A stretch of DNA of 64,000 nucleotides from Pyrinomonadaceae bacterium (GCA_036387315.1 DASVTY010000012.1:1408-65407), one strand, 5' to 3'. Counted from the first letter of the stretch, positions 18,509-62,887 are shown. Numbers and translations: made by a program. The notes: a model not told the origin generated them from the letters alone.

Positions 18509-18562
18509 TTGTCAAATGGAAAGTTAAATTCGCATAATATATGCGATGGGAGCAAGCGAATT

Positions 18563-19231
18563 ATGATTGCCGTTGAATCATTACAGGCGGAAAATCGCGT
18601 CGTCAAATCTGTTTTGCACGCTTTGGCTGAGGAAGGCTTGGTTACAGTCGTCGGCGAGGACGAAGAAGAGATGAGCGAAACGACTCTGCATTTTGAATTG
18701 GTAAATTATTTGTTCAACGCTCTCAAGCTGTTTTTCGCCGAGCGCGAAAACGTTTTCGTCGCTTCCAATCTGCGAATCTCATACGATCCGCAAAATCCGC
18801 TTAAATGGTTTGCGCCGGACGTTTTGGTTGCTTTCGAGACGGCGAACCGAGAGCGTTCGAGCTACGATTTAAAAACCGAAGGGCAAATGCCGCAGGTTGT
18901 CTTTGAAATCTCCAGCTCGCAAACAGCTTATAAAGATATGGGCGAGAAATATAATATTTACGCCCGGCTCGGAGTCGAAGAATATTATTTGCTCGACCCG
19001 GAGCGCAATCTGCTTCCCGACACGCTGATGGCTTATCAACGCAAAGGCGGTAAATTGCTGCCGGTGGAAATTCAAAACGGGCGCGTTTTCAGCCCGCAAC
19101 TCGGTTTGGAAATTGTGGACACCGGCGCTCAATTTCGACTTTTCGATTCAAAAAACAATGATTTCTTGCGCTCGCCAGAGGAAACAGCCGCCAGGCTTGC
19201 CGAGCTTGAAGCCTTACTCAAACAAAAATAA
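18563..19231 (+). CDS. Uma2-family (DUF820) putative restriction-type endonuclease
   Basis: ..H..L...L...L...F.......V.SN..I.Y.........APDV.V......R..Y......G..P..V.EI.S.....D...K...YA..GV.EY...DP. ATG at 18563 with a gggag SD is preferred over the TTG at 18509. Confidence 0.75.
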   Translation: MIAVESLQAENRVVKSVLHALAEEGLVTVVGEDEEEMSETTLHFELVNYLFNALKLFFAERENVFVASNLRISYDPQNPLKWFAPDVLVAFETANRERSSYDLKTEGQMPQVVFEISSSQTAYKDMGEKYNIYARLGVEEYYLLDPERNLLPDTLMAYQRKGGKLLPVEIQNGRVFSPQLGLEIVDTGAQFRLFDSKNNDFLRSPEETAARLAELEALLKQK

Positions 19232-22421: not shown

Positions 22422-23990
22422 ATGAAATCCGGCTTCGACCAAAAAACCGCGTTTTGGCGCGATAAAATCGAAACGCGAGACCTGATATTTTTTATTATCG
22501 GCTGCGTTTTTATTTATCTGCATCTTTTCGCGCTCCCTGCGACGCCGATTTTTTACGAAGAAGACCATCTTTATTTTGTCCACGACGCCTGGCGAATGTA
22601 CGAAGGCGAAGCGATTTATAGAGATTTTTTTCAGTTGATGTTTCCCGGCGGGCAGGTTTTATATCTGCTCCTGTTTTACATTTTCGGCACGAAGTTTTGG
22701 CTCATCAACGCGGTGATTTTTCTTCAAGCCTCCGCCCACGTTTTGCTCGCTCTGGCAATTTCAAAACGTATTTTCGGCTCAAGCTGGTACGCATATTTGC
22801 CGCCGAGCCTGTATTTGTTTTTCGGATTCCGGTGGTTCGGAATTGACGGAACGCACCGTGTTTTAAGCCCGATTTTTATTTATCTGGCGATTTTTATCCT
22901 GCTCAAAAACAGAAACCTTAAAAGGCTTATTGTCGCTGGCGCATTGTGTGGCTTTGCCAGTTTTATCACTCAGCAGCGGGGCGTTCTGGCAGTCGGCGCA
23001 ATCGCGGTTTTTCTGCTTTATGAAGCCTTTAAAAACAGAAAACTTGGGAAAGACTTTCTTGTCGCCGAACTCGTTTTGCTGGTTTCATTCGGTTTAACTC
23101 TGACAATTTTAATTTTGCCTTTTATCATTTCTGCCGGACCGCAAACTTTTTTTGACTACACTTTTTTCTTTATCAGAAATTACGTTCAGGATTCGACCGG
23201 AAATTATCTTTCTTATTTCAACAACGTCAGGAAAATCTTCGAGCAGGGATTTTTATTTTCCGCCGTCACGATCTTTTACTGCGCTCTGATTCCGCTCGTT
23301 TATCTGATTTCATTTTTTTATCTGTGGCGGAAGAAGGACAATTCGGACATAAAAGCCAAAAGCGAGATTTTTTTGATTTCGCTCGTCGGATTGTTCCTGA
23401 CTTTGGGAACGTTTGCGCCGAATCCGTACAGATTTTTCCAAATCGCAATTCCGGCTTTGATCGTTTTGGTCTGGCTGATTTCTCAGCTTAAAATAAAATC
23501 CGAATCGGTAATTCGCGCTGCCGTCGCGGGGCTAATAATTTTGGGAATGGCACTGGCGTTTCGGCTGCAAACAAATTGGGAAAAAAATATTTTGGCGGCG
23601 CGCACCGGAAACATCGCGTTTCTTTCGCCGGTCGTTCTTGAGCGTTACAAATGGTTGTCGGAAAACACAGTAGAAAACGAATATGTTTTTGAAGTTTATC
23701 AATGCGCGGTTAATTTTGTTTTGCAATTAAGAAACCCGACACAAGTGACTTTTTTGTTAAATACGGGCTACACTCCCGTTTGGCAGGTAACACAATCAAT
23801 AGAAAATTTGGAGCGGAAAAAACCGAGATTCATTATCTGGGACGGAGCTTGGACGAGGGAATTGGAGACAATCGAAGAAGGCGAGCATTTGGGACCGCTT
23901 TATGATTATTTGCGGCAGAATTACGAGCTAAAAAAAGAGTTTACGCCTTACAACAATCGTGAAATGCAATTATGGGAAAGAAAACAATAA
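22422..23990 (+). CDS. Polytopic membrane protein, GT-C-like (ArnT/PMT-type) glycosyltransferase candidate
   Basis: 522 aa with more than 10 predicted TM helices. Acidic first loop (..YEEDHLYF..) and a soluble C-terminal domain. Family assignment is tentative. Confidence 0.45.
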   Translation: MKSGFDQKTAFWRDKIETRDLIFFIIGCVFIYLHLFALPATPIFYEEDHLYFVHDAWRMYEGEAIYRDFFQLMFPGGQVLYLLLFYIFGTKFWLINAVIFLQASAHVLLALAISKRIFGSSWYAYLPPSLYLFFGFRWFGIDGTHRVLSPIFIYLAIFILLKNRNLKRLIVAGALCGFASFITQQRGVLAVGAIAVFLLYEAFKNRKLGKDFLVAELVLLVSFGLTLTILILPFIISAGPQTFFDYTFFFIRNYVQDSTGNYLSYFNNVRKIFEQGFLFSAVTIFYCALIPLVYLISFFYLWRKKDNSDIKAKSEIFLISLVGLFLTLGTFAPNPYRFFQIAIPALIVLVWLISQLKIKSESVIRAAVAGLIILGMALAFRLQTNWEKNILAARTGNIAFLSPVVLERYKWLSENTVENEYVFEVYQCAVNFVLQLRNPTQVTFLLNTGYTPVWQVTQSIENLERKKPRFIIWDGAWTRELETIEEGEHLGPLYDYLRQNYELKKEFTPYNNREMQLWERKQ

Positions 23991-25938: not shown

Positions 25939-27465
25939 ATGATTGAGACAACAAAAATAAACTTCTCGAAAGGGAAAATCGATTCGCGGTTCGCCTTTTT
26001 ATCGGCGGCGTTGATTTTGATGATCGGCGTTCCGGCGGCAGCCGTTTTGTGGTTTTTTTCGGACGAGGATTTTTGGCGCGGCGCATCGAATATGTATTTG
26101 CTGCCGTGGATTGCCGCAACCGCGCTTGTCGTGCTGTCTCCGACGGCTTATTTGCTTTATTACAAAAAATTCGACCTTTTCCATCCGCTCGTCCACGCGG
26201 CTTGGGCTTACTGGTTTCCGGCGTTTGTGATCGGCGGTTTGGTGATCGCTTCCGGGTTTCTTTACCCGTATCAAATGCTGTTGATAGCCGACCCGGAAAC
26301 CGATTTTAAGTGGACGTATATTTACATAATCCTCGGCTTTCTCGGATTGATTGCAGGATACTCGCTTCCGTTCGGAAAACGCTGGGGCGCTTACTTCAGC
26401 CATAAATTGCCCGCCTGGGATTGGCAACCCCGACAGGTTTTGCTGCCGGCGGTTGTTTTTCTCGGAATCGGGTTGTTTTTCTACGTCAGCGCGTTTCTTT
26501 CTGGCGTCGTCGGTTTTAGTACGATTGACGTTGCCGACGCTTTCGCTTCGTTAAATTTTATGCTCTCGCTGCTCTCGCTCGAAGCGGGATTTCTGGTGGC
26601 GATGTATGTTTTTAAATCCAAAAGAATTACGCCGCTGCATCTGCTCGCGTTTCTCGTCATCCTCATTATCGTCGTTTCCCGTTTGAGTCTCGGCGGCAAT
26701 CGGGGAACTTTGCTGATGATCGTTTGTTTGCTGGCAATGGCTTTTGTTTATTCGGGCAGAAAAATAAAGCTAATGCACGGGGCATTCTTTGGTGTGGTTG
26801 CAATTTTAGCCGTGCTCGGCGGAATGATTTACGGCACGACGTTTCGCAATCTGAAAGGAGCCGAAGAGCGCACCGGAATAGACGAGCAGCTTAAAATCGT
26901 CGAGCAAACATACGACGCGCTGACAACGCAAAAATCAGGCAAGGTTTTGGACGAAGCGTTTTACAATCTCGGCGAGAGAATTGACGGCGTTAGCTCGGTC
27001 GCCGTTGTTGTTTCAAATTATGAAAGACTAAAGCCGTTTGAAAGCGCGCACGGAATTGAAAACAACATCATCACCGAATTATGGACGATGTTTATTCCGC
27101 GTTTTCTGTGGACAAACAAGCCTTTGATTTATGACGCGCGCGCGTACAGCGATTTATATTTTAATTTCAGCGGAAACTCTTACGCGATGACACCGATTTC
27201 CGATTTGCTCAGAAATTTCGGACCCGTCGGAGTTCCGCTCGGATTGATGATCGTCGGTTTTTATCTGCGGTTTGTTTATGCGCTCTTGATCGAAGATCAA
27301 ACGGTCACCATCGGTCGCGCGACCGCTTATTATATGTTCGTCGGCGGTCTTAACTACGAAGGTTATTACACGATGGTTATCCTCTACGGCTGGCGCATTT
27401 TGTTGATTGTTTCCATCACTTTCATCATCACGGATTTCTTTTTAATCCGCAAAAAAAGCTTATAA
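25939..27465 (+). CDS. Polytopic membrane protein, candidate Wzy-type repeat-unit polymerase
   Basis: 508 aa with about 12 hydrophobic segments and a central soluble loop. The locus otherwise lacks a polymerase. The call rests on context more than on motifs. Confidence 0.5.
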   Translation: MIETTKINFSKGKIDSRFAFLSAALILMIGVPAAAVLWFFSDEDFWRGASNMYLLPWIAATALVVLSPTAYLLYYKKFDLFHPLVHAAWAYWFPAFVIGGLVIASGFLYPYQMLLIADPETDFKWTYIYIILGFLGLIAGYSLPFGKRWGAYFSHKLPAWDWQPRQVLLPAVVFLGIGLFFYVSAFLSGVVGFSTIDVADAFASLNFMLSLLSLEAGFLVAMYVFKSKRITPLHLLAFLVILIIVVSRLSLGGNRGTLLMIVCLLAMAFVYSGRKIKLMHGAFFGVVAILAVLGGMIYGTTFRNLKGAEERTGIDEQLKIVEQTYDALTTQKSGKVLDEAFYNLGERIDGVSSVAVVVSNYERLKPFESAHGIENNIITELWTMFIPRFLWTNKPLIYDARAYSDLYFNFSGNSYAMTPISDLLRNFGPVGVPLGLMIVGFYLRFVYALLIEDQTVTIGRATAYYMFVGGLNYEGYYTMVILYGWRILLIVSITFIITDFFLIRKKSL

Positions 27466-27474
27466 TTTGCCGAA

Positions 27475-28506
27475 ATGGAAACAATTGTATTCACCAACGG
27501 TTGTTTTGACATCCTGCACGCCGGTCACGTTGATTTGCTGACAAGAGCGCGCTCACTGGGAACAAAACTGATTGTCGGGATCAATTCAGATAACAGCGTC
27601 CGCCAAATCAAAGGCGCGCCCCGTCCGTTTGTATGCGAAGAGGGAAGAGCCGCCGTTTTGCGCGGTTTGCGAGCTGTTGACGAAGTAGTGATTTTCGACG
27701 AGCCGACGCCGAAAAGAATCATCGAGGAAATCAAACCCGACGTTTTGGTCAAAGGCGGCGATTGGAAACCGGAAGAAATAGTCGGGGCGGATTTTGTGCT
27801 TGCGCGAGGCGGCGAAGTTTATTCACTGCCTTTGTTAGACGGCTTTTCCACGACGGCTATTAGCGAAAAAATCATTAGGAAAACAAATCAGTCAGAACCC
27901 AAAGCTGCTGAAACATCTTTGCAAACAAGCGAGGCAAACATGGAGATTGCGCGGCATTCATTATCAGCCCACAAAGCGGTTTTCGATTTGTTGTTTGAAA
28001 ACGAAATTCCGGCAATCGTTCGTTCCGCCGAAATGATTGCGGCGGCTCTAAAATCCGGCAACAAAATTTTGCTTTGCGGAAACGGCGGGAGCGCGGCGGA
28101 CGCGCAGCATATTGCGGCGGAGTTTGTCGGGCGTTTTGAAAAAGAACGAAAAGGATTTCCCGCAATCGCTTTGACAACAGACACTTCCGCGCTCACGGCT
28201 CTCAGTAATGATTATGGTTTCGAGCGGGTTTTTGCCAGACAAGTCGAAGCATTTGCAAGGACGGGCGATGTTCTCATCGGAATCAGCACCAGCGGAAATT
28301 CCCCGAACGTTTTAGCCGCGATTATGACTGCTCGAAAAATCGGCTGTGCGACAATCTGTTTAACCGGAGCGAAGGGCAAAAAACTTGCAGGGCTTTGCGA
28401 TGCCGCAGTTATAGTTCCTTCGGAACGCACTTCGCGGATTCAGGAAGGACATTCGGCAATCGGGCATTTGTGGTGCGAAATCGCGGACAATATTTTAATC
28501 TCTTAA
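27475..28506 (+). CDS. Fusion protein: D-beta-D-heptose-1-phosphate adenylyltransferase (HldC/RfaE domain II) plus phosphoheptose isomerase (GmhA, SIS)
   Basis: N-terminus FTNGCFDILHAGHV..L..A...G..LIVG.NSD.S....KG..RP (cytidylyltransferase fold). C-terminus ..ILLCGNGGSAADAQH.AAE.VGRF..ER...PAIAL..D.S..TA..NDYG....F..Q.......GDVL.GISTSGNS.NV (GmhA). Confidence 0.85.
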   Translation: METIVFTNGCFDILHAGHVDLLTRARSLGTKLIVGINSDNSVRQIKGAPRPFVCEEGRAAVLRGLRAVDEVVIFDEPTPKRIIEEIKPDVLVKGGDWKPEEIVGADFVLARGGEVYSLPLLDGFSTTAISEKIIRKTNQSEPKAAETSLQTSEANMEIARHSLSAHKAVFDLLFENEIPAIVRSAEMIAAALKSGNKILLCGNGGSAADAQHIAAEFVGRFEKERKGFPAIALTTDTSALTALSNDYGFERVFARQVEAFARTGDVLIGISTSGNSPNVLAAIMTARKIGCATICLTGAKGKKLAGLCDAAVIVPSERTSRIQEGHSAIGHLWCEIADNILIS

Positions 28507-28526
28507 AAATTTATATCAATTACAAA

Positions 28527-29513
28527 GTGAATAAAAAGGCTTTAATAACAGGAATTACGGGACAAGACGGAAGCTATTTAGCGGAACATCTTCTTGATTT
28601 AGGATACGAAGTTCACGGACTCGTGCGGCGCGTCGCATTGGAAGACCCTGAACGCAGATTTACGCGAATCAGACATCTTCTCGACAGAGTGACGCTTCAC
28701 CCTGCGAGCTTGGAGAGCTATCCGAGCATTTTTCACATTGTCAGCAAATACGATTTTGACGAATGTTATCATCTGGCGGCTCAGAGCTTTGTCGCCGAAA
28801 GTTTTGCCGACGGATTTTCGACAATGAACACGAATATCAACGGCACGCATTATATGTTAGCCGCGTTGCGCGAGCTGCGCCCGAAATGTCGTTTTTATTT
28901 TGCCGGTTCAAGCGAAATGTTCGGCAAAGCGCAGGAAATACCGCAGCGCGAAGCCACGCCGTTTCATCCGCGCTCGCCCTACGGCATCAGCAAAGTCGCG
29001 GGTTTCGACCTGACGAGAAACTATCGCGAAGCCTATGAAATGTTTTGCTGTAGCGGAATTCTTTTTAATCATGAAGGTCCGCGTCGCGGTGTGGAATTTG
29101 TAACCAGAAAAATTACGACCGGAGTCGCCCGGATTAAATTAGGGATGGCGGCGGAATTACGTTTGGGAAATCTCGAAGCCAAACGCGATTGGGGACACGC
29201 GGCAGATTATGTTACGGCAATGCATCTGATGTTACAGCAGCCCGAACCCGACGATTATGTGGTCGCGTCCGGTGAAACTCATTCCGTGCGCGAATTTTGC
29301 GAGCTGGCTTTCGATTGTGCCGGGCTTGATTATCAAAAATACGTTCACATTGACGAACAGTATTATCGCCCGGCGGAAGTTGATTTGCTTATCGGGGATT
29401 CGACGAAAGCGCGGAACGTGCTCGGCTGGAAACCAAAATACACTTTTGAAGAATTGGTTAAAGAAATGGTCGAATCCGATTTGGAATCAATAGACGCGGG
29501 GCTGAATAAATAG
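28527..29513 (+). CDS. gmd: GDP-mannose 4,6-dehydratase
   Basis: KKALITGITGQDGSYLAEHLL..GYEVHG..RR..; ..SSEMFG......Q.E.TPF.PRSPYG.SK; ..GILFNHE.PRRG..FVTRKIT. GTG start at 28527 chosen because the upstream extension overlaps the previous gene. Confidence 0.9.
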   Translation: MNKKALITGITGQDGSYLAEHLLDLGYEVHGLVRRVALEDPERRFTRIRHLLDRVTLHPASLESYPSIFHIVSKYDFDECYHLAAQSFVAESFADGFSTMNTNINGTHYMLAALRELRPKCRFYFAGSSEMFGKAQEIPQREATPFHPRSPYGISKVAGFDLTRNYREAYEMFCCSGILFNHEGPRRGVEFVTRKITTGVARIKLGMAAELRLGNLEAKRDWGHAADYVTAMHLMLQQPEPDDYVVASGETHSVREFCELAFDCAGLDYQKYVHIDEQYYRPAEVDLLIGDSTKARNVLGWKPKYTFEELVKEMVESDLESIDAGLNK

Positions 29514-29522
29514 TTTTTGTTG

Positions 29523-30518
29523 ATGAAAGATTGGCGAAAAGTTTTCGAAAAATTTGCCGACGTTCGAGTTTTGATAATCGGCGACGTTATGCTCGACCGC
29601 TATTGGTGGGGAACCGTCTCGCGCATTTCGCCCGAAGCTCCCGTTCCGGTCGTTAAGCTGGAGAAAACCGAACTCAAAGCGGGCGGCGCGGCAAACGTGG
29701 CGGCAAACATTTCGAGCCTCGGCGCAACAAGCCTGCTCCTCGGCGTTACGGGCGAAGATGAATGCGGACGGGCTTTGCCGCAAATTTTGGAGCGGCACAA
29801 CGTAGGTGCAAAACATTTAATATCTTTCTCGAATCGTCCGACGACGACAAAAACCAGAATTGTCGCGCACAATCAGCACGTTGTCAGAATTGACGAAGAG
29901 CAGGCTGCGCCTCTCGACGCCCAACAAGCGCAAATTATTTGGCAAGCCGCCGATAAGCTTCTGCCCGAAGCCGATGTCGTCGTTTTGTCGGATTACGCCA
30001 AAGGTTGTTTGTGCGATTCGGTTCTTTCCAACGTAATCGAAACGGCGCGAAAATTGAAAAAGATTGTTCTGGTTGATCCGAAAGGCAAAAACTACGAGAA
30101 ATACAAAGGCGCGACTTTGCTGACGCCGAACAAATCGGAAGCCGCCGCAGCATCCGGCATTGATATAACGGATGAGCGAACAATCATCGAAGCCGGAAAC
30201 CGCCTGCTCGAAAATCTGCAAATAGAATCTCTGCTTATAACGCTCGGCGAAGAAGGGATGCGACTTTTCGAAAAAGGAAAGGATTCAAGACATTTTCCGG
30301 CGATGGCGCGCGCGGTTTACGATGTGACGGGCGCTGGCGATACTGTAATTGCCGCAATGGCTGTTGCGCTCGGCGCTTCGCTTGAGATGCCCGAAGCGGT
30401 GAAAATGGCAAACGCGGCGGCAGGTTTAGCCGTTGAAGAACTCGGAACGACTCCGGTCGGCGCGGCGGATTTAGCAAAAGCGCTGGAAAAGGGAACGGGA
30501 GATAACAGTGAAAAATGA
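29523..30518 (+). CDS. D-beta-D-heptose-7-phosphate kinase (HldA/RfaE domain I, PfkB family)
   Basis: ..VLIIGDVMLD.YWWG.V.RISPEAPVPVV......GGAANVA.N..SLG. C-terminal ..DVTGAGDTVIA... ATG at 29523. Confidence 0.85.
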   Translation: MKDWRKVFEKFADVRVLIIGDVMLDRYWWGTVSRISPEAPVPVVKLEKTELKAGGAANVAANISSLGATSLLLGVTGEDECGRALPQILERHNVGAKHLISFSNRPTTTKTRIVAHNQHVVRIDEEQAAPLDAQQAQIIWQAADKLLPEADVVVLSDYAKGCLCDSVLSNVIETARKLKKIVLVDPKGKNYEKYKGATLLTPNKSEAAAASGIDITDERTIIEAGNRLLENLQIESLLITLGEEGMRLFEKGKDSRHFPAMARAVYDVTGAGDTVIAAMAVALGASLEMPEAVKMANAAAGLAVEELGTTPVGAADLAKALEKGTGDNSEK

Positions 30519-34173: not shown

Positions 34174-35421
34174 ATGCGCGTCCTGATTTTCTCGCAATAT
34201 TATTATCCTGAGCCGATTCCGAAACCTCACGAATTGGCTGAGAAATTAGCCGATGACGGTCACGAAGTCTGCGTATTGACCGGGTATCCGCATTATCCGA
34301 CCGGAACGCTCACCAAAGGATACAAGCTCGGTTTGATGATGCGCGAAAAAATCGGAAAAATTCCGGTTCTCCGGCTTTTTGAAATGCCCTATCACAGCAC
34401 CAAGCCGTTTTTGAGAATGGTGAATTACTTGTCTTTTATGGTCAGCGCGCCGCTCGGCGCTTTTTTCACGCCGAAAGTTGACGTGATGTACGTCTGGCAT
34501 CCGCCGCTGACAATCGGGCTGGCGGCTTGGGCTATCTCGAAAATAAAGCGCGTGCCGTTTATTTACGATGTGCAGGATATTTGGGGGCATTTTACGGTTT
34601 TGTCGGGGATGGTCAAAGAAGGCAGCCTGACGATTAAAATAATTCGCAGACTGGAAAAATGGGTTTGCAGCCAAGCCGATCATTTGATTGTTCAAACCGA
34701 GGCAGGACGCGATTATTTCGTTGAGCGCGGAGTCAAAGAAGAGCGAATTGCGATTTTGCCGCATTGGATTGACGAACAGATGTTTGCCGAAGCCGGGAAC
34801 GCCGAGCGCGAACGGCTGAGACAGGAAATGAACTGGCAGGACGAGTTTATCGTTTTATTCGCCGGAAACCTGGGAATCGTTCAAGGTTTGGATTCGGTCG
34901 TTGAGGCTGCGAGACGCATTCCGAACGGAAAAGCCAGAATCGTTTTCGTTGGCGACGGAACCGATAAGCCGCGGCTGGAAAGAATAGCCGAGGAATTAAA
35001 AGTCGGCGACAAATTGCAATTCGTTGACCGCCAGCCGATTGAGCGAATGCCCGCCTTTATGGCGGCGGCGGACGCGCTTTTGATAAATTTAAAGAAAAGC
35101 GAGTTTACCAAATTCGTGATTCCGTCAAAAACGGTCGCCTATCTGGCGAGCGGAAAACCGATTTTAATGTCGGCGGGCGGCGCGTCGGAAGATTTAATCA
35201 GAGAAGCAGGCGCAGGTTTGACGGTCGAGCCGGACGATTCGGAAAAATTAGCGGAAGCGATTGACGAAATGTGTCGAATGTCGAAAGAAGAGCTAGGTAA
35301 GCTCGGAACGAACGGCAGAGATTTTTTGTTAAAATATCTGAGCAAGAATAAGGTAATTGCCGAATACGAAAATTTGATCAAAACGGTCGCCGAAAATCGC
35401 CGGAAAAAACGCGGAAACTAA
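34174..35421 (+). CDS. Glycosyltransferase family 4, WcaI/WbuB-like
   Basis: MRVLIFSQYYYPEP......LAE.L...GHEV.VLTG.P.YP.G. C-terminal Glycos_transf_1 signature. Last glycosyltransferase of the locus. Confidence 0.85.
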   Translation: MRVLIFSQYYYPEPIPKPHELAEKLADDGHEVCVLTGYPHYPTGTLTKGYKLGLMMREKIGKIPVLRLFEMPYHSTKPFLRMVNYLSFMVSAPLGAFFTPKVDVMYVWHPPLTIGLAAWAISKIKRVPFIYDVQDIWGHFTVLSGMVKEGSLTIKIIRRLEKWVCSQADHLIVQTEAGRDYFVERGVKEERIAILPHWIDEQMFAEAGNAERERLRQEMNWQDEFIVLFAGNLGIVQGLDSVVEAARRIPNGKARIVFVGDGTDKPRLERIAEELKVGDKLQFVDRQPIERMPAFMAAADALLINLKKSEFTKFVIPSKTVAYLASGKPILMSAGGASEDLIREAGAGLTVEPDDSEKLAEAIDEMCRMSKEELGKLGTNGRDFLLKYLSKNKVIAEYENLIKTVAENRRKKRGN

Positions 35422-35566
35422 GACGTGCGTTTGAGCCGTGAAAAGCTGTTTAATGAAAAAGACGATTGACGCGGCGTGATAAAAATGTTAGTTTTTCGGC
35501 AACAGACCGAAATTTATGTTATTTTTACGGTTTGAAGCGTTGTCGGGATAAAATCATCAGACGGTA

Positions 35567-36397
35567 ATGCAATTTATCGTGAGTCAAGATTTACCGTTTG
35601 GTTTTGCATTCAGCTCATACGGAGTTTCAATCGAAATTCGCACAAATCGGTTCGATTTATTAACCGAAATTGAAAATTTGCTGCCGCCCGCAAGCCGCAT
35701 CCTCTCAAGAGGAAAACCGATTGATTTTTTATTTGCGGTAATTTGGGACGATGAAAGAGAACGAATCAGCGAATTTTATCGCAATTCGGAGCAGCAGGCT
35801 TGCGACGGCGATTACTCGCAATCGCTGCATTTGATCGAAATCGCTTTGCGATTGACAGTCGCGGAATTTTCGCCGCATCTGGTTTTCGTTCACGCCGGAG
35901 CGGTCGCATTTGAAGATTCGGCTGTAATCGTTCCCGGAAGAAGCCGCGCAGGGAAAACGACATTGACCGCAGCTTTGGTGCAAAACGGGGCTGTTTATTA
36001 CTCGGACGAGTATGCGATCTTTGATGAATTCGGCTTTTTGCATCCGTTTCCGAAGCCGCTTTCCGTGAGAGAGCCTTGGGCGTTTGGAAAACAGATTGAT
36101 CAATCGGTTGAAACGTTCGGCGGGCGACAGGGAACAAAGCCGATTAAAGCGAAAGCAATCGTTGTGACCGAATATGAAAAGGATGCACGTTGGCAGCCGG
36201 AGCGATTGAGCAAGGGAGAAGGCGTTTTAGAACTGCTGGCAAACACGGTTTCGGCGCGGACGAATCCTCGGCTGGCATTAAAAATCTTGCCTCGCGCCGT
36301 AGAAAATGCTTTAATTTTGAAAGGTAAAAGAGGAGACGCCGAAGCGGTTTCCAAAGAAATTAAAAAAGTTTTGACAAAAAACGCGATTTTCGCTTGA
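35567..36397 (+). CDS. HPr-kinase C-terminal-domain-like P-loop protein (HprK-related kinase)
   Basis: ..VFVHAGAVAFEDSAVIVPGRSRAGKTTLTAALV..GA.YYSDEYA.. resembles the HprK catalytic core with Walker A GxxxxGKT (nt 35936-35959). 276 aa. Confidence 0.65.
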   Translation: MQFIVSQDLPFGFAFSSYGVSIEIRTNRFDLLTEIENLLPPASRILSRGKPIDFLFAVIWDDERERISEFYRNSEQQACDGDYSQSLHLIEIALRLTVAEFSPHLVFVHAGAVAFEDSAVIVPGRSRAGKTTLTAALVQNGAVYYSDEYAIFDEFGFLHPFPKPLSVREPWAFGKQIDQSVETFGGRQGTKPIKAKAIVVTEYEKDARWQPERLSKGEGVLELLANTVSARTNPRLALKILPRAVENALILKGKRGDAEAVSKEIKKVLTKNAIFA

Positions 36398-36456
36398 AAA
36401 AGTTCGATAAATAAACTAAAAACTATACTGCTTTTGATTGTTTGAGGAGGAAAAGA

Positions 36457-37002
36457 ATGCAAAATTTACAAAAACCGGTTGCTCGACACGAAGGACTGGT
36501 CGTTCAGGAAATGCCCGATGAAGTGTTGGTTTACGATTTAAACACAAATAAGGCTCACTGTTTAAATAAATCTGCCGCCGCTGTGTGGAAAAATTGTGAC
36601 GGCAGCAATTCAATTTCTGATATTGCCGCAATTCTAAAAAATGAATTTAAAACACCGGTCAGCGATGATTTTGTCTGGCTGGCAATCGATCAGCTCGGCA
36701 AAGATGAATTGCTCGAGCAAAAATTAACCGCACCTACCAATGGTTTAACGCGCCGCGAAGCTATGCGCCGCGTTGCGCTGGCTTCGTTGGTTGCTCTGCC
36801 GGTTGTCGCTTCATTGACCGCGCCGACTGCGGCACAAGCAGCCAGCGTTTGTTCGAACGCGGGCGCTGCCTGTACTTGTTCGAGCACTAACAACGGCGCT
36901 TTTGCTATAACTTGTCCCGGATCATTTACAGGATGCACCGGAGCTTGCGCTTGCAACAATATCCAACCGGGTTCAAATCAGGGAGTCTGTCAGCAAGCCT
37001 AA
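36457..37002 (+). CDS. PqqD/RRE-like domain fused to a Tat/Sec-signal-like hydrophobic segment and a 53-aa Cys-rich C-terminal peptide
   Basis: gaggagg SD 6 nt before the ATG at 36457. The N-terminal roughly 90 aa (..VVQEMPDEVLVYDLNTNKAHCLNKSAAAVW..CDG..S...I...L....) are PqqD-like. Then TRREAMRRVALASLVALPVVASLTAPTAAQA, then ASVCSNAGAACTCSSTNNGAFAITCPGSFTGCTGACACNNIQPGSNQGVCQQA. Confidence 0.7.
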   Translation: MQNLQKPVARHEGLVVQEMPDEVLVYDLNTNKAHCLNKSAAAVWKNCDGSNSISDIAAILKNEFKTPVSDDFVWLAIDQLGKDELLEQKLTAPTNGLTRREAMRRVALASLVALPVVASLTAPTAAQAASVCSNAGAACTCSSTNNGAFAITCPGSFTGCTGACACNNIQPGSNQGVCQQA

Positions 37003-37052
37003 TTTGAATTAAATTCTAAACAGCGTATGTTGTAAACGAATGCGCTGTTTTT

Positions 37053-37931
37053 ATGAGTAACGGTTCGCAGCAGGAAAATTTATTTCAATTGATGACGAAG
37101 GTGCAGGCGGAGAGAATCCGCCGCGCCTTCGTTTTTTTTCGTGAACACGAAATCGAGCCGGTTCTGATCAAAGGCTGGGCGATTGCGCGTTTTTATCCGA
37201 ACCCCCGCGAGCGTTTTTCCGCCGACATGGACTTGGCGGTTAATCCCGATGTTTTTCCAAAAGCGCTCGAATTAAAAAATCGTCATTTGAGCGGCAAATT
37301 GCCGATTGACCTTCATTGCGGTTTGGGGCAATTCGACAACCTTTCATTTGAAAATTTGTTTGAAAATTCCCGGCTCGTCGAATTGACTGACACAACAGTC
37401 CGGGTTTTGCGCCACGAAGACCATTTGCGCTTATTAGCGGTTCACTGGCTGCGCGACGGCGGTATTTTCAAGCAGCGTTTGTGGGATATTCATTATGGTT
37501 TGAAAAACCGCCCGGCGGATTTCGATTGGGACAGATTTTTAGAAACAAACGGCGAAAAGCGACGCAAATGGATTATCGCGGCAATTGCCGTCGCTCATCG
37601 CTACACCGACCTGAATGTTGAAGACACGCCGATAGCCGAAGAAGTGAAAAATCCCCGGCTGATTCCGAAATGGATGCTGCGAACGCTGGAAAAAGAATGG
37701 AACGATCCGATTAAGTTTATGCCGCTTGAACAAGTGATGAACGACCGGCGAGAAGTTTGGCGGCAGTTAAAAAAAAGATTTCCGCCCAACCCTTTGGTCG
37801 CTTCGCTTTACGCAAACGCGCCTTTAAACAATTTTCCCCGGCTGCCTTATCAAATTATTAATATTTTCCAACGAGTAATGCCTTCAATCAATCGAACGAA
37901 ATCGCAGCTTCAATCAAAAATAAAGAAATAG
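37053..37931 (+). CDS. Uncharacterised nucleotidyltransferase family protein (NTP_transf_5-like)
   Basis: ..EIEPVLIKGWAIARFYPNPRERFSADMDLAV.. matches the remembered KG-x-Y-x-R-x-D-x-DLLV pattern of this family. 292 aa. Confidence 0.6.
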   Translation: MSNGSQQENLFQLMTKVQAERIRRAFVFFREHEIEPVLIKGWAIARFYPNPRERFSADMDLAVNPDVFPKALELKNRHLSGKLPIDLHCGLGQFDNLSFENLFENSRLVELTDTTVRVLRHEDHLRLLAVHWLRDGGIFKQRLWDIHYGLKNRPADFDWDRFLETNGEKRRKWIIAAIAVAHRYTDLNVEDTPIAEEVKNPRLIPKWMLRTLEKEWNDPIKFMPLEQVMNDRREVWRQLKKRFPPNPLVASLYANAPLNNFPRLPYQIINIFQRVMPSINRTKSQLQSKIKK

Positions 37932-37959
37932 CTCACATTTCATAAACGTGGATACAAAG

Positions 37960-38038
37960 AATTAACAGGGATGAAAGGAATGAAGGGGATATTTCTTGTT
38001 ATTATCAATCCATTTCATCCTTTTCATCCCTGTTAATT
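37960..38038. terminator. 25-bp (2 mismatches) inverted repeat between convergent genes; likely terminator
   Basis: aattaacagggatgaaaggaatgaa (37960-37984) versus ttcatccttttcatccctgttaatt (38014-38038), followed by ttctgttttt. Confidence 0.6.
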
Positions 38039-38089
38039 TTCTGTTTTTCGTATTTCGACAAATTGAAATTTGCATTAGAAATACCGAAC

Positions 38090-38725
38090 TTAATTTCTTC
38101 GACTGAGATAATGATGCCAGATTATTCTGGCGGCGACGGCGCGCAGCGGTTTCCAAATTTCGCCGATTAACTCAAGCTCATCCGGGGTCGGGCGTTGTTC
38201 GAGATTTTTTACTTCCTGCGCGCCGACGATTAAACCCAAATCTCCGACGGGAAAAGCATCGGCACGGCACAGGCACATCAACAAATAAACGTCGGCAGTC
38301 CAACGCCCGATGCCTTTGAGCTTAATTAATTCTTTTTTTACGGCATCGTCGGATAAATTCTCCAAAGCCGTTAAATCCAAATCTCCGGAGACGATTGCCG
38401 ACGCGAGATTTCGGGTGTAAGCAATTTTCTGCCGACTGAAGCCGCACGATTTTAATTCATCATCGGAAAGCCGCAAAAACGATTCGGGCGTAAAACCTTC
38501 GCCGATTGCTCGTTTTAATTTTTCATAAGCCGCGCGCGCCGAAGCGAGCGAGACTTGTTGTTCGAGAACGATGTGGACGAGCGTCGGAAAACCCGCCGGT
38601 CGTATCCAAATCGGCGGCTCGCCGAAATTTTCGACCACGTTTCGCAAATCCCGGTCGCGGTCGCATAAAGCTCGGATAAAATCTTGATAATTTTCTTCGG
38701 TGATAATCAGAGTTTCGTTTTGCAT
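38090..38725 (-). CDS. DNA-3-methyladenine glycosylase II-like (AlkA family, HhH-GPD)
   Basis: ..EQQVSLASA......L.......F.P......L...GFS..K......LA......L; LKGIGRWTADVYL.. HhH motif, with a conserved Asp downstream. Confidence 0.8.
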   Translation of the reverse strand: MQNETLIITEENYQDFIRALCDRDRDLRNVVENFGEPPIWIRPAGFPTLVHIVLEQQVSLASARAAYEKLKRAIGEGFTPESFLRLSDDELKSCGFSRQKIAYTRNLASAIVSGDLDLTALENLSDDAVKKELIKLKGIGRWTADVYLLMCLCRADAFPVGDLGLIVGAQEVKNLEQRPTPDELELIGEIWKPLRAVAARIIWHHYLSRRN

Positions 38726-59326: not shown

Positions 59327-62300
59327 ATGCCTTCAAAAGATTTTGTCCATCTGCACGTTCACACAGATTACAGCATTCTGAAAAGCGCAAATCAAATTCC
59401 GGCGCTTGCGCGTCGCCTCAACGAACTGGAAATGAAAGCCTGTGCGATGACCGATTGCGGCAATTTGTACGGCGCGCTGTCGTTTTACTATAACATGAAG
59501 AAAAACGGCATTCAGCCGATCATCGGTTTCGAGGCTTATCTGACGCTCGGTTCCAGATTTGACAAAAGCGCCGCTCTCAAATCGGGCGAGCTGCCTTATT
59601 ACACTCTTGTTTTATTGGCGGAAAATCTGACCGGCTATTTTAATCTCGTCAGTTTGTCGTCAAAAGCTTTCACCGAAGGATTACATCACAAACCGAGAAT
59701 AGATTTCGATTTGCTCACGGCGCATAGTACCGGGATCATTTGTCTGACCTCCGGTGGGGACGGGGTTGTCAATCATTTTCTAAAACAAAATCGTTTTGAA
59801 GACGCATACAATTACGCAGCCAAACTTAAAGATGTATTCGGTCAAAACAATCTCTTTCTGGAAATTCAAGACCACAATCTCCCCGAAGAAAAAGCGATTC
59901 GCCAGCCCCTCGTTCAACTATCAAAAAAGCTGGATTTGGATTTAGTGGCAACCAATGATGTTTATTACCTCTCAGCAGACGACGCCAAAGCTCATGAAAT
60001 GATGCTCTGCATCGGCGCTGCCAAAACAATTCATGACGAGTCGCGTCCGAGACTCGGTTCCGAACAATTTTATCTCAAATCCGCAGAGGAAATGTGGCGT
60101 CTTTTCGGCGCGGAATTGCCCCAAAGTTTATCAAAAACAATTGAAATTTCCGAGCGCTGTAATTTTGCTCTGCCGAGCAGTGAAGATTCTTTTAATTTGC
60201 CGCTCTATCCGATACCTCTCGATTCAAACTGCGAAACTGCCGATGAATACTTTGAAAAAGTAGTGTGGGACGGCTTTAAAAAACGTCAGCAATCTGTTTG
60301 GGAGCCTTTGCAAAACGCCGGGAATTTAAAATACTCGATTGAAGAATACAAAAACAGAATCATTATCGAAACCGGCATTATCAGACGCATGGGTTTTCCA
60401 GGCTATTTTCTGATCGTTTGGGACTTCGTTCGCTTCGCCAAAGAAAACGATATTCCCGTCGGTCCCGGGCGCGGCTCGGCGGCTGGCTCTCTGGTCGCGT
60501 ATTGTCTGGAAATAACCGACGTTGATCCGATTCAATACGATCTGCTTTTCGAGCGTTTTCTCAACCCGGAGCGCGTCACAATGCCTGATATTGATATTGA
60601 TTTTTGTATTCGCGGGCGCGAGCGCGTTATCAAGCATGTGGTCAATCAATACGGGAGAAATTCGGTCTGCCAAATCGTCACTTTTGGAACTATGGCTTCC
60701 AAAGCCGTTATTAAGGATGTCGGCAGAGCTTTGAACATGCCTTATTCCGAGGTCGAGAAAATCGCCAAACTGATCCCGCCTCCAGTCCGGGGACGAAACG
60801 TCAGCATCACGCAAGCTCTCGAACAAGTCGAAGAACTAAAAACCGCCGTGGAAACAAATCCACAGGTAAAAGAGGTGATTGATCTGGCACGCCGCCTCGA
60901 AGGCTGTGCCAGACATACTTCGGTTCACGCAGCCGGCGTGGTCATTTCTCCCAAACCGCTTGACGAGCTGATTCCGGTTGCCCTGTCGGCTAAAGACGAG
61001 CTAACCACACAATTTGCGATGTCCGACCTGGAAAAAACCGGAATGCTTAAGATGGATTTCCTTGCCTTAACCACCTTAACGGTAATAAACGACTGCTTAA
61101 TCAGCATAAAGCAATCCATTAATAAGCAAATTGACTGGACGCAAACGCCCTTAAGCGATGAAGAAACAATGAAGATTTTTGCAGACGGCAGAACCGAAGC
61201 CATTTTTCAATTTGAATCCCCCGGAATGCAGGAAATCTGCCGCCGTTTAAAACCGAAAGGAATCGAAGATCTTGCCGCTCTCAACGCGCTCTATCGCCCC
61301 GGTCCTCTCGACGGCGGGATGGTTGACGATTTTATCAGCCGGCATCGCGGTCAAAAACAAGTTCGCTATCTCGTTCCGCAGATGAAAGAGATTTTAAATA
61401 ACACGCACGGAATTATCGTTTATCAGGAGCAAATTATGCAGCTCGCCCAAAATCTGGCGGGCTATTCGCTTGGCGAAGCCGATATGATGCGCCGCGCAAT
61501 GGGCAAAAAGAAGCGCGAAGAGATGGCAAAGCATCAGGAAAAATTTGTCAACGGCGCAACCGAACGCAATATCAAACGGGAAAAAGCGGAACAAATCTTC
61601 TCTCTGATGGCGCAGTTTGCCGATTACGGCTTTAACAAAAGCCACAGCGTCGCCTATGCCTACCTGGCTTTCCAAACAGCATATTTAAAAGCCCATTACC
61701 CGTCGCATTTTTACGCGGCGGTTCTCTCGCACGAAGCACAGGACACCGCAAAAATACAAAAGTATATTGCCGAATTGAAAACCGCCGCAATAGAGCTTTT
61801 GCCGCCCGACATCAACGAAAGCAATTCCGGTTTTACGCCCGTCCACAATGCGATTCGATTCGGCTTGAGCGCGATCAAAGGAATCGGAGAAGCGGCGATT
61901 CAAGAGATTATCAACGCCAGGCGGGAAAAACCGTTTTCATCATTTTTAGATTTTATTTCGAGAGCCTCAAGCTCGGTAAATCGCCGCAGCTTGAACAGCC
62001 TGATTTACTCCGGCGCCTTCGACTCTCTCAAAGACGATTCGTCTACAACAAATCATTGGCGCTCGAAACTGATTGCCGAAATTGAAACTTCAATATCAGT
62101 CGCACAAAAGGAGCGCAGCTCAAAGGAAAAAGGTCAAAACGCTCTTTTCGGAGCCGCAAATCAAGAAGTCAGTGAAATTAAAATCAAGGATTTTCCCGTT
62201 TTAACGGACAAAGAAATCTGGACGGCGGAAAAAGAAACGCTCGGCTTTTACTTAAGCAACCATCCTTTAAGCAAGCATGACGAACTGCTTAAGCAGCTTG

Positions 62301-62863
62301 AAGCGCAAAGCATTTTAAGTCTGACGCAAAACGCTTCATCCGACTCCGAGCAAAAACTCTGGATCGCCGGAATCATCAGCGAAGCGCAAGTCCGCTTAAG
62401 CAAAAAAGGAAACCGTTTTTCCATTTTTAAATTGGAAGATTATACAGGTTCGATTAAATGCCTGGCTTGGTCCGAAGCATTCGAGAGATATTCGCAGCTT
62501 CTCACAAACGACGAAATAATCTTTGCCGCCGGACATCTGGAAAGTGAAAACGAAACGAATTTTTCGTTTATTGTCGAAGAAATTTATAAATTTGAAGAAG
62601 CCCTGCCGGCGCGCGCCGATTCCCTCATCGTCAATCTGCCGCCCGTTGCGGAAAAAAATATTAACTTTTATGAAAGCCTGCTTGCCTTGCTAAACCGTAA
62701 TCGTGGAAAATGCGAAGTGTTTTTTGAAATGCCGATGCACAAAAACAATTGTTACCGCGTACGCCTCGGCGTCCACGGCTCTCTGCGAATACAGGGAAAT
62801 TATAATTTAGCCAAAGAACTGGAACTGCTCGGCTGCGTGGTTGAATGGCAAATCCGCAAGTAA
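59327..62863 (+). CDS. dnaE: DNA polymerase III alpha subunit
   Basis: PHP domain FVHLHVHTDYS, ..PGRGSAAGSLVAY.L.IT.VDP, ..MPDIDIDF, OB-fold C-terminus. 1178 aa. Confidence 0.95.
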   Translation: MPSKDFVHLHVHTDYSILKSANQIPALARRLNELEMKACAMTDCGNLYGALSFYYNMKKNGIQPIIGFEAYLTLGSRFDKSAALKSGELPYYTLVLLAENLTGYFNLVSLSSKAFTEGLHHKPRIDFDLLTAHSTGIICLTSGGDGVVNHFLKQNRFEDAYNYAAKLKDVFGQNNLFLEIQDHNLPEEKAIRQPLVQLSKKLDLDLVATNDVYYLSADDAKAHEMMLCIGAAKTIHDESRPRLGSEQFYLKSAEEMWRLFGAELPQSLSKTIEISERCNFALPSSEDSFNLPLYPIPLDSNCETADEYFEKVVWDGFKKRQQSVWEPLQNAGNLKYSIEEYKNRIIIETGIIRRMGFPGYFLIVWDFVRFAKENDIPVGPGRGSAAGSLVAYCLEITDVDPIQYDLLFERFLNPERVTMPDIDIDFCIRGRERVIKHVVNQYGRNSVCQIVTFGTMASKAVIKDVGRALNMPYSEVEKIAKLIPPPVRGRNVSITQALEQVEELKTAVETNPQVKEVIDLARRLEGCARHTSVHAAGVVISPKPLDELIPVALSAKDELTTQFAMSDLEKTGMLKMDFLALTTLTVINDCLISIKQSINKQIDWTQTPLSDEETMKIFADGRTEAIFQFESPGMQEICRRLKPKGIEDLAALNALYRPGPLDGGMVDDFISRHRGQKQVRYLVPQMKEILNNTHGIIVYQEQIMQLAQNLAGYSLGEADMMRRAMGKKKREEMAKHQEKFVNGATERNIKREKAEQIFSLMAQFADYGFNKSHSVAYAYLAFQTAYLKAHYPSHFYAAVLSHEAQDTAKIQKYIAELKTAAIELLPPDINESNSGFTPVHNAIRFGLSAIKGIGEAAIQEIINARREKPFSSFLDFISRASSSVNRRSLNSLIYSGAFDSLKDDSSTTNHWRSKLIAEIETSISVAQKERSSKEKGQNALFGAANQEVSEIKIKDFPVLTDKEIWTAEKETLGFYLSNHPLSKHDELLKQLEAQSILSLTQNASSDSEQKLWIAGIISEAQVRLSKKGNRFSIFKLEDYTGSIKCLAWSEAFERYSQLLTNDEIIFAAGHLESENETNFSFIVEEIYKFEEALPARADSLIVNLPPVAEKNINFYESLLALLNRNRGKCEVFFEMPMHKNNCYRVRLGVHGSLRIQGNYNLAKELELLGCVVEWQIRK

Positions 62864-62887
62864 TCGAAATATTTTTCGGAGGAAACA

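Follow-up and report, generated by a model that had tools for sequence, protein, structure and literature searches.

Three co-directional genes at the edge of an exopolysaccharide (EPS) locus in a Pyrinomonadaceae bacterium bring together an HprK-like kinase, a PqqD-type recognition element for peptides that are made on ribosomes and modified after translation (RiPPs; the element is abbreviated RRE) and an NTP_transf_5 nucleotidyltransferase. On what substrate would such a set of proteins act, and how would its product leave the cell? We addressed these questions in a stretch of 64,000 nucleotides (nt) (GCA_036387315.1 DASVTY010000012.1:1408-65407), hereafter the window, in which the three-gene cassette occupies positions 35567-37931. 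With a probability that we put at about 0.5, and arguing largely by analogy, we propose that the cassette encodes a RiPP pathway resembling that of the linear polyphosphorylated peptides (LPPs), with the RRE working in cis and with a general signal peptidase and general export in place of the dedicated protease and pump. The observations behind this proposal are the domain architecture, the pattern of conservation and selection, the synteny, the intact catalytic motifs and a recurrent hairpin behind the precursor gene. An initial annotation of the window had already suspected a precursor with an RRE in cis, an export module and a modifiable tail; the conservation pattern leads us to the same reading, in which the modification itself would follow the example of related pathways.

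The RRE fusion protein

The cassette contains the following features, among them three open reading frames (ORFs) whose products are measured in amino acids (aa):

35567-36397, plus strand: ORF1, kinase of 276 aa with the P-loop GRSRAGKTT
36457-37002, plus strand: ORF2, RRE fusion protein of 181 aa, with an ATG at 36457 and GAGGAGG in front of it
36457-36741, plus strand: RRE domain of ORF2, by a match to Pfam PqqD and a structural match to lasso B1 RREs
36742-36840, plus strand: twin-arginine, signal-like segment of ORF2 (aa 96-128), a conserved motif with a model helix at 99-120
36841-37002, plus strand: hypervariable, uncharged, Cys-rich tail of ORF2 (aa 129-181 and the stop codon), with 8 Cys and a Ser at +2; putative core peptide
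37018-37050, plus strand: hairpin with a U-run (U5), directly 3' of ORF2 and 2 nt 5' of the ORF3 start
37053-37931, plus strand: ORF3, nucleotidyltransferase of 292 aa; contains KGWAIARFYPNPRERFSADMDL, with the motif KG...R...DMDL

The ORF listing places the three genes on the plus strand in the order kinase, RRE fusion, nucleotidyltransferase. Together with the folding analysis it bears out the protein sizes of 276, 181 and 292 aa, the 145-nt gap in front of the cassette and the strong closing hairpin that had been reported for this locus. The mechanical ORF list starts ORF2 at an upstream TTG (36442; 186 aa), whereas the ATG at 36457 gives the 181-aa protein.

Relatives of ORF2 are numerous. 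It has 1670 word-indexed homologues, many of which cover >90 per cent of the protein at 50-60 per cent identity, the nearest being in metagenome-assembled genomes of Pyrinomonadaceae, and a scan of one genome per species finds relatives in 419 genomes. An exhaustive profile search of 1.84 billion cluster representatives (clustered at 50 per cent identity) returned 1,185 proteins at E <= 1e-30, a number that rises to 7,932 if E <= 1e-3 is allowed; in the best 150, the match covers the RRE and reaches the signal-like segment or passes through it. By these sequence searches, the fusion of an RRE, a twin-arginine (RR) signal-like segment and a hypervariable tail is a very large, unnamed family, and what had been taken for a novelty of this locus is the defining trait of that family. 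Our locus statistics refer to the best 80 of the 419 relative-bearing genomes, whose loci, like those of the more divergent members mentioned below (L081 and higher), carry numbers beginning with L. Almost all of the 80 are labelled Acidobacteriota (Pyrinomonadaceae, Blastocatellia and Chloracidobacterium); L069 is labelled Actinomycetota and L067 simply 'bacterium'.

The PqqD-type RRE that had been assigned to the N-terminus of ORF2 withstands closer inspection. ORF2 matches Pfam PqqD with 33.3 bits (gathering score 23.4) over aa 22-67 of the 181-aa protein (aa 27-72 if counted from TTG 36442). In the AlphaFold2 model, the domain has strands at 14-18, 23-27 and 32-36 and helices at 38-46, 53-64 and 70-82, with a predicted local distance difference test score (pLDDT) of ~90. 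Its top Foldseek matches are the lasso B1 RREs TbiB1 and FusB1 (5v1u, 5v1v and 6jx3), with target-normalised TM scores of 0.73-0.76. Sequence searches of the PDB with all three cassette proteins gave nothing significant, and the crystal structures of LppB and PbaB1 were not among the matches. A role in pyrroloquinoline quinone (PQQ) biosynthesis was considered and rejected, as ORF2 scores below threshold against TIGR03859 (PqqD; 24.9 bits, cut-off 46) and no pqq genes lie nearby.

Conservation is distributed very unevenly along ORF2. Mean pairwise identity is 0.69 in the RRE (pN/pS, the ratio of non-synonymous to synonymous differences, is 0.04-0.08 with the linker counted in), 0.27 in the short, variable linker that follows, 0.66 in the signal-like segment (pN/pS 0-0.03) and 0.20 in the tail (0.12 without the shared Cys; pN/pS 0.33-0.51).

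The signal-like segment is internal, behind a folded domain of 95 aa. Its motif consists of [S/T]-R-R-[E/D]-[V/A]-[I/M/L]-[K/R]-[K/R], ~18 hydrophobic residues and Pro(-6)-x-x-[A/V]-x-Ala(-1). The arginine pair, Pro(-6) and Ala(-1) are present in 193/193 sequences, and A, V or I stands at -3 in 191/193. A cut by signal peptidase I is predicted after Ala128, at the window junction AQA/ASVCS. The NCBIfam models of twin-arginine translocation (Tat) signals give only weak matches (10-16 of 32 members, with E >= 0.02). Judged by its sequence, the segment looks like an internally placed twin-arginine signal with a signal-peptidase-I site.

Because the putative precursor carries both such a segment and such a site, the general machinery of the cell can supply the exporter and the protease that are missing from the cassette. 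Specifically, a lasso cyclase, a B2 protease, a radical SAM enzyme, a YcaO enzyme, a dedicated signal peptidase and an MsbA-type exporter were all sought by Pfam scans, and none was found among the scanned ORFs at 27-48393 (large ORFs at 48.4-59.3 kb fall outside the scan). This agrees with the initial annotation, which had listed cyclase, leader protease, radical SAM, YcaO and exporter as absent and had called the cassette an orphan. That term is weakened by the signal-like segment and the signal-peptidase-I site.

Across the family, the tails are 17-174 aa long. They consist of 17 per cent Cys and otherwise mostly of Gly, Ala, Thr, Ser, Asn and Pro, with 3.8 per cent charged and 0.8 per cent aromatic residues. 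The number of Cys is even in 191/193 close members and in 128/135 diverse members, and therefore points to disulfide pairing outside the cytoplasm. Immediately behind the predicted cut, Ser is found at +2 in 100/135 diverse members, and S/T occupies +2 or +3 in 86 and 96 per cent of two sequence sets, compared with ~38 per cent expected from composition. It is the one strongly conserved non-Cys feature that we found in the tail. Thioether or dehydration chemistry on this Cys/Ser-rich tail was rejected for want of any such enzyme among the scanned ORFs and given the even Cys count; the dehydration (-18 Da) that had been proposed among the possible modifications is disfavoured on the same count, which points to disulfides.

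Two relatives illustrate how the tail changes. L067 carries two intact tandem fusion genes with different tails (L067:1376-2576). In L004 (L004:7986-8564), the flanking genes are 95-99 per cent identical to those of the window, whereas the tail is strongly diverged at synonymous as well as non-synonymous sites (pS is 0.56 in the tail vs 0.12 in the RRE part). Because the divergence extends to synonymous sites amid near-identical flanks, it suggests that the tail alone was replaced by recombination.

Transcript structure sets the fusion gene apart as well. The hairpin at 37018-37050 folds with -13.9 kcal/mol (z = -2.75 against shuffled sequences) and is a candidate attenuator or mRNA-stabilising element. 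A stable hairpin stands 3' of the fusion gene in 45/60 distinct intergenic regions (75 per cent; median z -3.47) vs 7 per cent of the kinase-to-fusion gaps. In peptide operons, hairpins of this type typically stand behind precursor or structural genes. The gaps inside the cassette are too short for a separate small precursor ORF, and none was found in them; nor do they contain an LPP-type leader motif ([YW]xxPx[VLI]). A conserved, leader-like part joined to a hypervariable tail, tandem copies, a tail swap, the 3' hairpin and the lack of any other precursor ORF in the cassette support, at the level of sequence, a precursor-like nature of ORF2.

Two further observations concern single loci. At L081:7421-7786, a degenerate fusion copy of 121 aa ends inside the signal-like segment. 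At L086:1694-3244, and at this locus only, a membrane protein with a MauE/DoxX domain and two thioredoxin-fold domains is encoded between the genes for nucleotidyltransferase and kinase, and could plausibly serve the Cys-rich tail as a dedicated partner in disulfide formation.

The two enzymes and the conserved trio

ORF1 had been described as resembling the C-terminal domain of HPr kinase. It has no Pfam match even at E <= 10, Hpr_kinase_C included (the scanned Pfam release lacks PF27840, a family precomputed on one ORF1 homologue), and the resemblance emerges instead from a sub-threshold NCBIfam match, the fold and the motifs. ORF1 matches HprK_rel_A (TIGR04352) with E = 1.3e-16 and 60.6 bits (cut-off 200) over profile positions 11-160 of 280, and HprK_rel_B (TIGR04355) with E = 0.011. 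HprK_rel_A is also the best NCBIfam model for 30/30 aligned kinase homologues (best E = 1.5e-18). The AlphaFold2 model of ORF1 (pLDDT 90.5, predicted TM score 0.86) is matched by Foldseek to structures of PEP carboxykinase and HPr kinase/phosphatase. Invariant in the family are H109-x-G111, the P-loop residues G129-K130 and S146-D147-E148. On the evidence of motifs and model, ORF1 is a P-loop kinase of the HprK/PEPCK fold with intact catalytic motifs. On our reading, its S-D-E is presumably the counterpart of the DD of PsmK, the kinase of the pseudomycoidin pathway, and HprK/P presumably has the same DD. The kinase family lacks a Pfam model and is annotated 'hypothetical'. A hidden Markov model of it finds only ORF1 in the window, which thus has no second kinase; the L029 locus has two. 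In PsmK, the metal-binding DD is D158/D159, in a site predicted to bind metal (PMC6993621).

For ORF3, the assignment to NTP_transf_5 (PF14907) is secure, with 64.9 bits against a gathering score of 31.2, and PF14907 is found in all listed homologues of ORF3. The family invariants K40-G41, D58-x-D60 and D86-x-H88 are kept, so that the nucleotidyltransferase catalytic motif is intact.

The three genes travel together. For 58 of the 80 loci, the flanks available on either side of the fusion gene measure at least 2.2 kb, and in 51 of these 58 both the kinase and the nucleotidyltransferase genes are adjacent and on the same strand; 2/58 have the kinase only, 3/58 the nucleotidyltransferase only and 2/58 neither. 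Because it recurs in 51/58 full-flank loci, the trio is not a product of chance. The commonest order is kinase-fusion-nucleotidyltransferase, with a minority of fusion-kinase-nucleotidyltransferase; L086 has the order nucleotidyltransferase, MauE and thioredoxin-fold membrane protein, kinase, fusion, Wzy_C-family gene. A survey of homologous trios had been suggested by the initial annotation, and in ours both the fused Cys-rich tail and polysaccharide neighbours are recurrent.

Some loci have other genes next to members of the trio. Directly behind the nucleotidyltransferase gene, L083 (L083:9636-12680) and L085 (L085:9714-12836) encode a Peptidase_C25 (gingipain-family) protein of ~1,000 aa, which may be an alternative processing enzyme. 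At L073:6483-7895, an orphan fusion gene lies right behind small microcompartment shell-type genes (BMC, EutN/CcmL-like by eye), a non-polysaccharide context. Finally, the possibility that the cassette is a known anti-phage defence system was rejected, as the PADLOC models gave zero matches to the three proteins at E <= 0.01.

The polysaccharide neighbourhood and competing explanations

The surroundings of the cassette in the window are as follows:

8513-35421, plus strand: Wzx/Wzy-type polysaccharide locus, co-directional, identified by Pfam scans
34174-35421, plus strand: last gene of that locus, a GT4/GT1 glycosyltransferase (Pfam)
35422-35566, plus strand: 145-nt intergenic gap between the last glycosyltransferase gene and the kinase gene
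~37954-38044, no strand assigned: long inverted repeat closing the cassette, with ORF3 on one side of it and the convergent HhH-GPD glycosylase gene on the other
38090-38725, minus strand: HhH-GPD glycosylase gene (Pfam), convergent neighbour, with unrelated genes beyond

The polysaccharide locus, whose left edge is a MutS gene on the minus strand, contains Wza-like, Wzc-like and Wzx-like genes, glycosyltransferases of families GT1, GT2 and GT4 and several methyltransferases, as well as a UDP-glucose dehydrogenase, nucleotide-heptose genes and a UDP-GlcNAc 2-epimerase. The 145-nt gap that separates it from the cassette shows no sigma-70-like promoter, its sole terminator-like site is weak and no better than in shuffled sequences, and its folding does not exceed that of shuffles either (z = -0.66); the promoter and terminator scan of the cassette likewise yielded nothing beyond the shuffle level. 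On the other side, the closing inverted repeat folds with -41.1 kcal/mol (z = -6.8), and 0/200 shuffles are equally good.

The tie to an EPS locus that had been noted for the window recurs among related loci. A UDP-GlcNAc 2-epimerase gene lies upstream of the cassette in 54/80 and a GT1 gene in 61/80 of them. The usual co-directional upstream block consists of FnlA-like, RmlD-like, UDP-GlcNAc 2-epimerase, GT1 and NAD-epimerase genes, and a WecA/WbpL-like initiating transferase gene (PF00953) directly precedes the kinase gene in 52/80 loci. In the polysaccharide locus of the window, the Pfam scans detect no recognisable WecA/WbpL-type (PF00953) gene; no specific search for a WbaP-type gene was made. 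Downstream of the cassette, the relatives have TsaB, RimI and DUF465 genes, followed by BamB-like, SSB, AccA and DnaE genes. In the window, DnaE- and AccA-like genes lie at 59327-63721, ~21 kb from the cassette vs a few kb in most relatives, and the window clade has therefore been rearranged downstream. The polysaccharide adjacency outlasts such rearrangements: the window clade lost its downstream synteny and still has the polysaccharide genes where they were, in L009 the polysaccharide block has changed to the opposite flank of the trio and is inverted, and the divergent L083, L085 and L086 again adjoin WecA-like or Wzy_C genes.

Several genes within the polysaccharide locus of the window deserve a separate record. 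A Uma2-family putative restriction endonuclease gene (18509-19231) sits amid methyltransferase and glycosyltransferase genes. The large proteins encoded at 22422-23990 (522 aa) and 25939-27465 (508 aa) have no Pfam match above the gathering score, the former matching PMT_2/GT-C weakly (22.4 bits, gathering score 26.1); either a Wzy polymerase or a GT-C enzyme may be hidden here. The region 27475-30518 contains a gene for a cytidylyltransferase-like and SIS protein, a GDP-mannose-4,6-dehydratase-family gene and a PfkB kinase gene, which suggest a nucleotide-activated (deoxy)heptose in the polysaccharide.

If the cassette is an LPP-like pathway, ORF2 would be the substrate: its N-terminal RRE would dock both cytoplasmic enzymes in cis, the RR signal-like segment would stand in for a leader peptide and the Cys-rich tail would be the core. 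ORF1 would phosphorylate the Ser/Thr at core position +2/+3, by analogy with the action of LppK on Ser3 and with PsmK/PadeK. ORF3 would attach to this phosphate a nucleotide-activated moiety, plausibly a sugar, as PsmN adds a hexose, and the sugar-nucleotide donor may come from the adjacent polysaccharide locus. The tail would cross the inner membrane by Tat or Sec/YidC, housekeeping signal peptidase I would cut behind A-x-A, after Ala128, and the 6-8 Cys would oxidise to 3-4 disulfides. The product could be a bacteriocin-like, a recognition or an envelope/EPS-associated peptide; that hypervariability, tandem duplication and tail swapping reflect antagonism or recognition between strains, or a role at the cell surface or in the matrix, is speculation. 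More tentatively, the family may represent a self-chaperoned, signal-led class of RiPPs that abounds in soil Acidobacteriota, in which the RRE holds the signal or core in the cytoplasm until kinase and nucleotidyltransferase have installed a phospho-linked group, possibly a glycan, and a hypervariable, disulfide-knotted peptide is then released, the donor coming perhaps from the polysaccharide pathway. In that case there would be a direct coupling of RiPP maturation with general secretion and possibly with EPS chemistry, the latter through, say, a peptide-linked or peptide-primed glycan.

A number of observations weigh against the pathway just outlined. The hydrophobic region of the signal-like segment has a mean Kyte-Doolittle value of 2.07, and no basic residue lies ahead of the A-x-A; typical Tat signals are less hydrophobic than this. 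Because it is unusually hydrophobic for a Tat signal, the segment could be an uncleaved signal anchor or Sec-dependent. RREs normally bind their leader in trans and not in cis. In the AlphaFold2 monomer of ORF2, neither the signal-like helix nor the tail is placed against the RRE with any confidence (pLDDT 48-58 over residues 91-130), so the idea of a cis chaperone of the signal finds no structural support there. In the L083/L085 clade, the fusion and nucleotidyltransferase genes are joined by the Peptidase_C25 gene and there is no kinase gene. L063, L073 and L081 are orphan fusion genes without kinase or nucleotidyltransferase, and L081 has full flanks; L084 and L087 show no partner in the available flank, which ends ~560 nt upstream (L084) and ~260 nt downstream (L087). 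L081, L084 and L087 are long-tail members. The housekeeping genes downstream are just as syntenic, so that inherited gene order may account for part, or even much, of the polysaccharide adjacency. As to chemistry, PsmN is the sole precedent for the nucleotidyltransferase step, since LppN was inactive in heterologous tests (PMC13381572).

Some of these points would be accommodated if ORF2 were an uncleaved membrane adaptor or sensor (N-in/C-out) with a periplasmic Cys-rich knob, its RRE, at the membrane's inner face, recruiting kinase and nucleotidyltransferase to another target, be it some other peptide, part of the polysaccharide machinery or a lipid-linked intermediate close to the WecA-like initiating transferase. 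The cassette would then regulate or tailor the polysaccharide. Such an adaptor, which we regard as unlikely though it is to be taken seriously, would fit a hydrophobic segment that is quite hydrophobic and, with an identity of 0.66 and pN/pS of ~0, far more conserved than ordinary signal peptides; it would also fit the position of the WecA/WbpL-like gene directly upstream of the kinase gene in those 52/80 loci, the persistence of the polysaccharide adjacency through rearrangements (window clade, L009, L083, L085 and L086) and the existence of orphan fusion copies without enzymes. However, the invariant Pro(-6) and Ala(-1), together with a small residue at -3, mark a cleaved signal and not an anchor, a hypervariable, tandem-duplicated and recombination-swapped ectodomain is not expected of an adaptor, the recurrent 3' hairpin fits a highly expressed structural or precursor gene, and the cassette offers no other candidate peptide substrate. 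The same neighbourhood raises the thought that the tail is a periplasmic glycan acceptor or polysaccharide anchor. Once the tail has been exported, a Wzy_C/O-antigen-ligase-family or GT-C enzyme would O-glycosylate its +2 Ser, in an Ala/Pro/Ser-rich context, and would draw for this on an undecaprenyl-linked glycan that the neighbouring locus makes, kinase and nucleotidyltransferase being preparatory or unrelated. The recurrent polysaccharide adjacency and the conserved +2 Ser are compatible with it, as are the Wzy_C-family genes that adjoin the fusion gene in three divergent loci and the weak GT-C/PMT_2-like match at window 22422-23990; PF04932, we take it, includes the protein O-oligosaccharyltransferases PglL and PilO. 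We consider this improbable: Wzy_C is absent from the conserved neighbours of the 80 closest loci and from the vicinity of the window cassette, the PMT_2 match is below the gathering score, and the conservation of two cytoplasmic enzymes and an RRE together with the tail would go unexplained.

Two simpler accounts fare worse. The cassette could be a plain member of the HPr-rel-A system of NCBIfam or a decayed cluster for a paeninodin-type lasso peptide, seeing that HprK_rel_A is the best kinase model throughout the aligned homologues, that HprK_rel_B matches too, and that a kinase, a PqqD protein and an NTP_transf_5 enzyme form the accessory set of phosphorylated lasso peptides (PMC6993621), as had been pointed out for this locus, and also belong to the LPP core (PMC13381572). 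Both forms of this account are highly improbable. The kinase is far below the HprK_rel_A cut-off, ORF2 has no TIGR04353 match and the kinase is single; no cyclase or B2 protein occurs in the scanned ORFs or in the neighbour families of the 80 loci, and a locus that is stable across hundreds of genomes is, for that reason, not a remnant. Least credible of all is that the three genes are functionally unrelated and adjacent by inherited gene order. Gene order in the family is indeed broadly conserved, with TsaB, RimI, SSB, AccA and DnaE syntenic downstream as well, but the trio stays intact where its flanks change (the window clade, the inverted block of L009, and L086 with its other order and extra genes), and the same three types of protein occur in experimentally validated pathways of another phylum.

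Comparison with known systems

Lasso peptides of the paeninodin and pseudomycoidin type share with the cassette an HprK-family kinase, a PqqD-type RRE (B1) and an NTP_transf_5-like enzyme, and lasso B1 proteins are the closest matches to the fold of the ORF2 RRE. In the pseudomycoidin pathway, the phosphate that PsmK places on the C-terminal Ser is extended by one or two hexoses through PsmN, an 'uncharacterised nucleotidyltransferase' (PMC6993621). The lasso acceptor is thus the C-terminal Ser, whereas the candidate Ser of the cassette lies close to the N-terminal end of its core. The tails of this family are, moreover, predicted to be disulfide-bonded, and lasso cyclase, B2 protease and ABC exporter are missing both from the scanned ORFs of the window and from the neighbours of the 80 loci.

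The HPr-rel-A system, which the initial annotation had named without being able to place these ORFs in it, does exist in NCBIfam (TIGR04352, TIGR04353 PqqD_rel_X and TIGR04355). It likewise combines an HprK-related kinase with a PqqD-family chaperone, its substrate is unknown, and it provides the nearest curated kinase models. The cassette proteins nevertheless fail its cut-offs: the kinase reaches 60.6 bits vs the required 200, the window ORF2 does not match TIGR04353 at E <= 1 (10/32 relatives match weakly, best E = 0.0018), and there is one kinase instead of two. Judged by these profile scores, the cassette is a relative of the HPr-rel-A system and not a member of it.

Signal-led precursors are known from other RiPPs. 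Bufferin precursors contain Cys, are modified in the cytoplasm by an MNIO/DUF692 oxidase, exported and cut by the general signal peptidase; an oxidase thus takes the place of kinase and nucleotidyltransferase, and the RRE is on a partner protein and not fused. Tat chaperones such as TorD, DmsD and NapD hold an RR signal peptide until cytoplasmic maturation is complete. With these chaperones the fusion would share a concept only, that of a cis RRE holding its own RR signal, which is hypothetical, and there is no relation in sequence or fold. In the literature, bufferin-type systems pair DUF2282 precursors, which have Sec-type signal peptides, with DUF2063 RRE proteins (PMC12710340). We found no paper on the acidobacterial RRE-signal-tail architecture and nothing relevant linking HPr-rel-A to exosortase/PEP-CTERM.

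The closest counterpart is the LPP pathway of Bacillota (Popov et al., Nat Commun, May 2026; PMC13381572). Its core genes encode the precursor LppA, the HprK-like kinase LppK, the discrete RRE LppB, the SipW-like signal peptidase LppS, the MsbA-like exporter LppD and the NTP-transferase LppN, and the clusters sit inside capsule loci (PMC13381572). LppK polyphosphorylates Ser3 of the core (AQS...), which is freed by a signal-peptidase-type cut; cleavage depends on the RRE and prefers the phosphorylated precursor (PMC13381572). According to the authors, neither LPPs nor paeninodins occur outside Bacillota, and what they do is unknown (PMC13381572).

Compared by published description and not by Lpp sequences, both systems have an HprK-like kinase, an RRE and an uncharacterised NTP-transferase, the placement of LppN in the Pfam family of ORF3 following from the wording of the paper. 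In either case the precursor is conserved in its N-terminal part and varies strongly at the C-terminus, polysaccharide loci surround both systems, and neither has a lasso cyclase. Release of the core by a signal-peptidase-type cut, demonstrated for LPPs, is predicted here, and the phospho-acceptor Ser at core position 3 of LPPs has its parallel in the conserved S/T at +2/+3. There are differences too. The RRE is fused to the precursor here and is the discrete LppB there; a twin-arginine signal-like segment stands here in place of the YxxPxVL leader of LPPs, none of which was found here; the scanned ORFs and the conserved neighbour families include no LppS-like peptidase and no LppD-like exporter; and the core here is Cys-rich with an even number of Cys, in a host that belongs to Acidobacteriota and not to Bacillota.

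What is new, therefore, is the signal-led fusion of RRE and precursor with a Cys-rich core, and what is known already is the LPP pathway as its close functional analogue, the publication of which lowers the novelty of the cassette. Its family is unnamed and present at scale in a soil phylum that ranks among the most abundant and the least cultured, and its architecture of a cis RRE and general secretion would be missed by standard rules for finding precursors and drawing cluster boundaries. If the proposed mechanism is correct, phospho(glyco)peptide RiPP chemistry reaches beyond Bacillota to a distant phylum. With sets of kinase, RRE and nucleotidyltransferase beside polysaccharide loci in both Bacillota and Acidobacteriota, the function of NTP_transf_5 and a possible link between peptide and EPS become testable.

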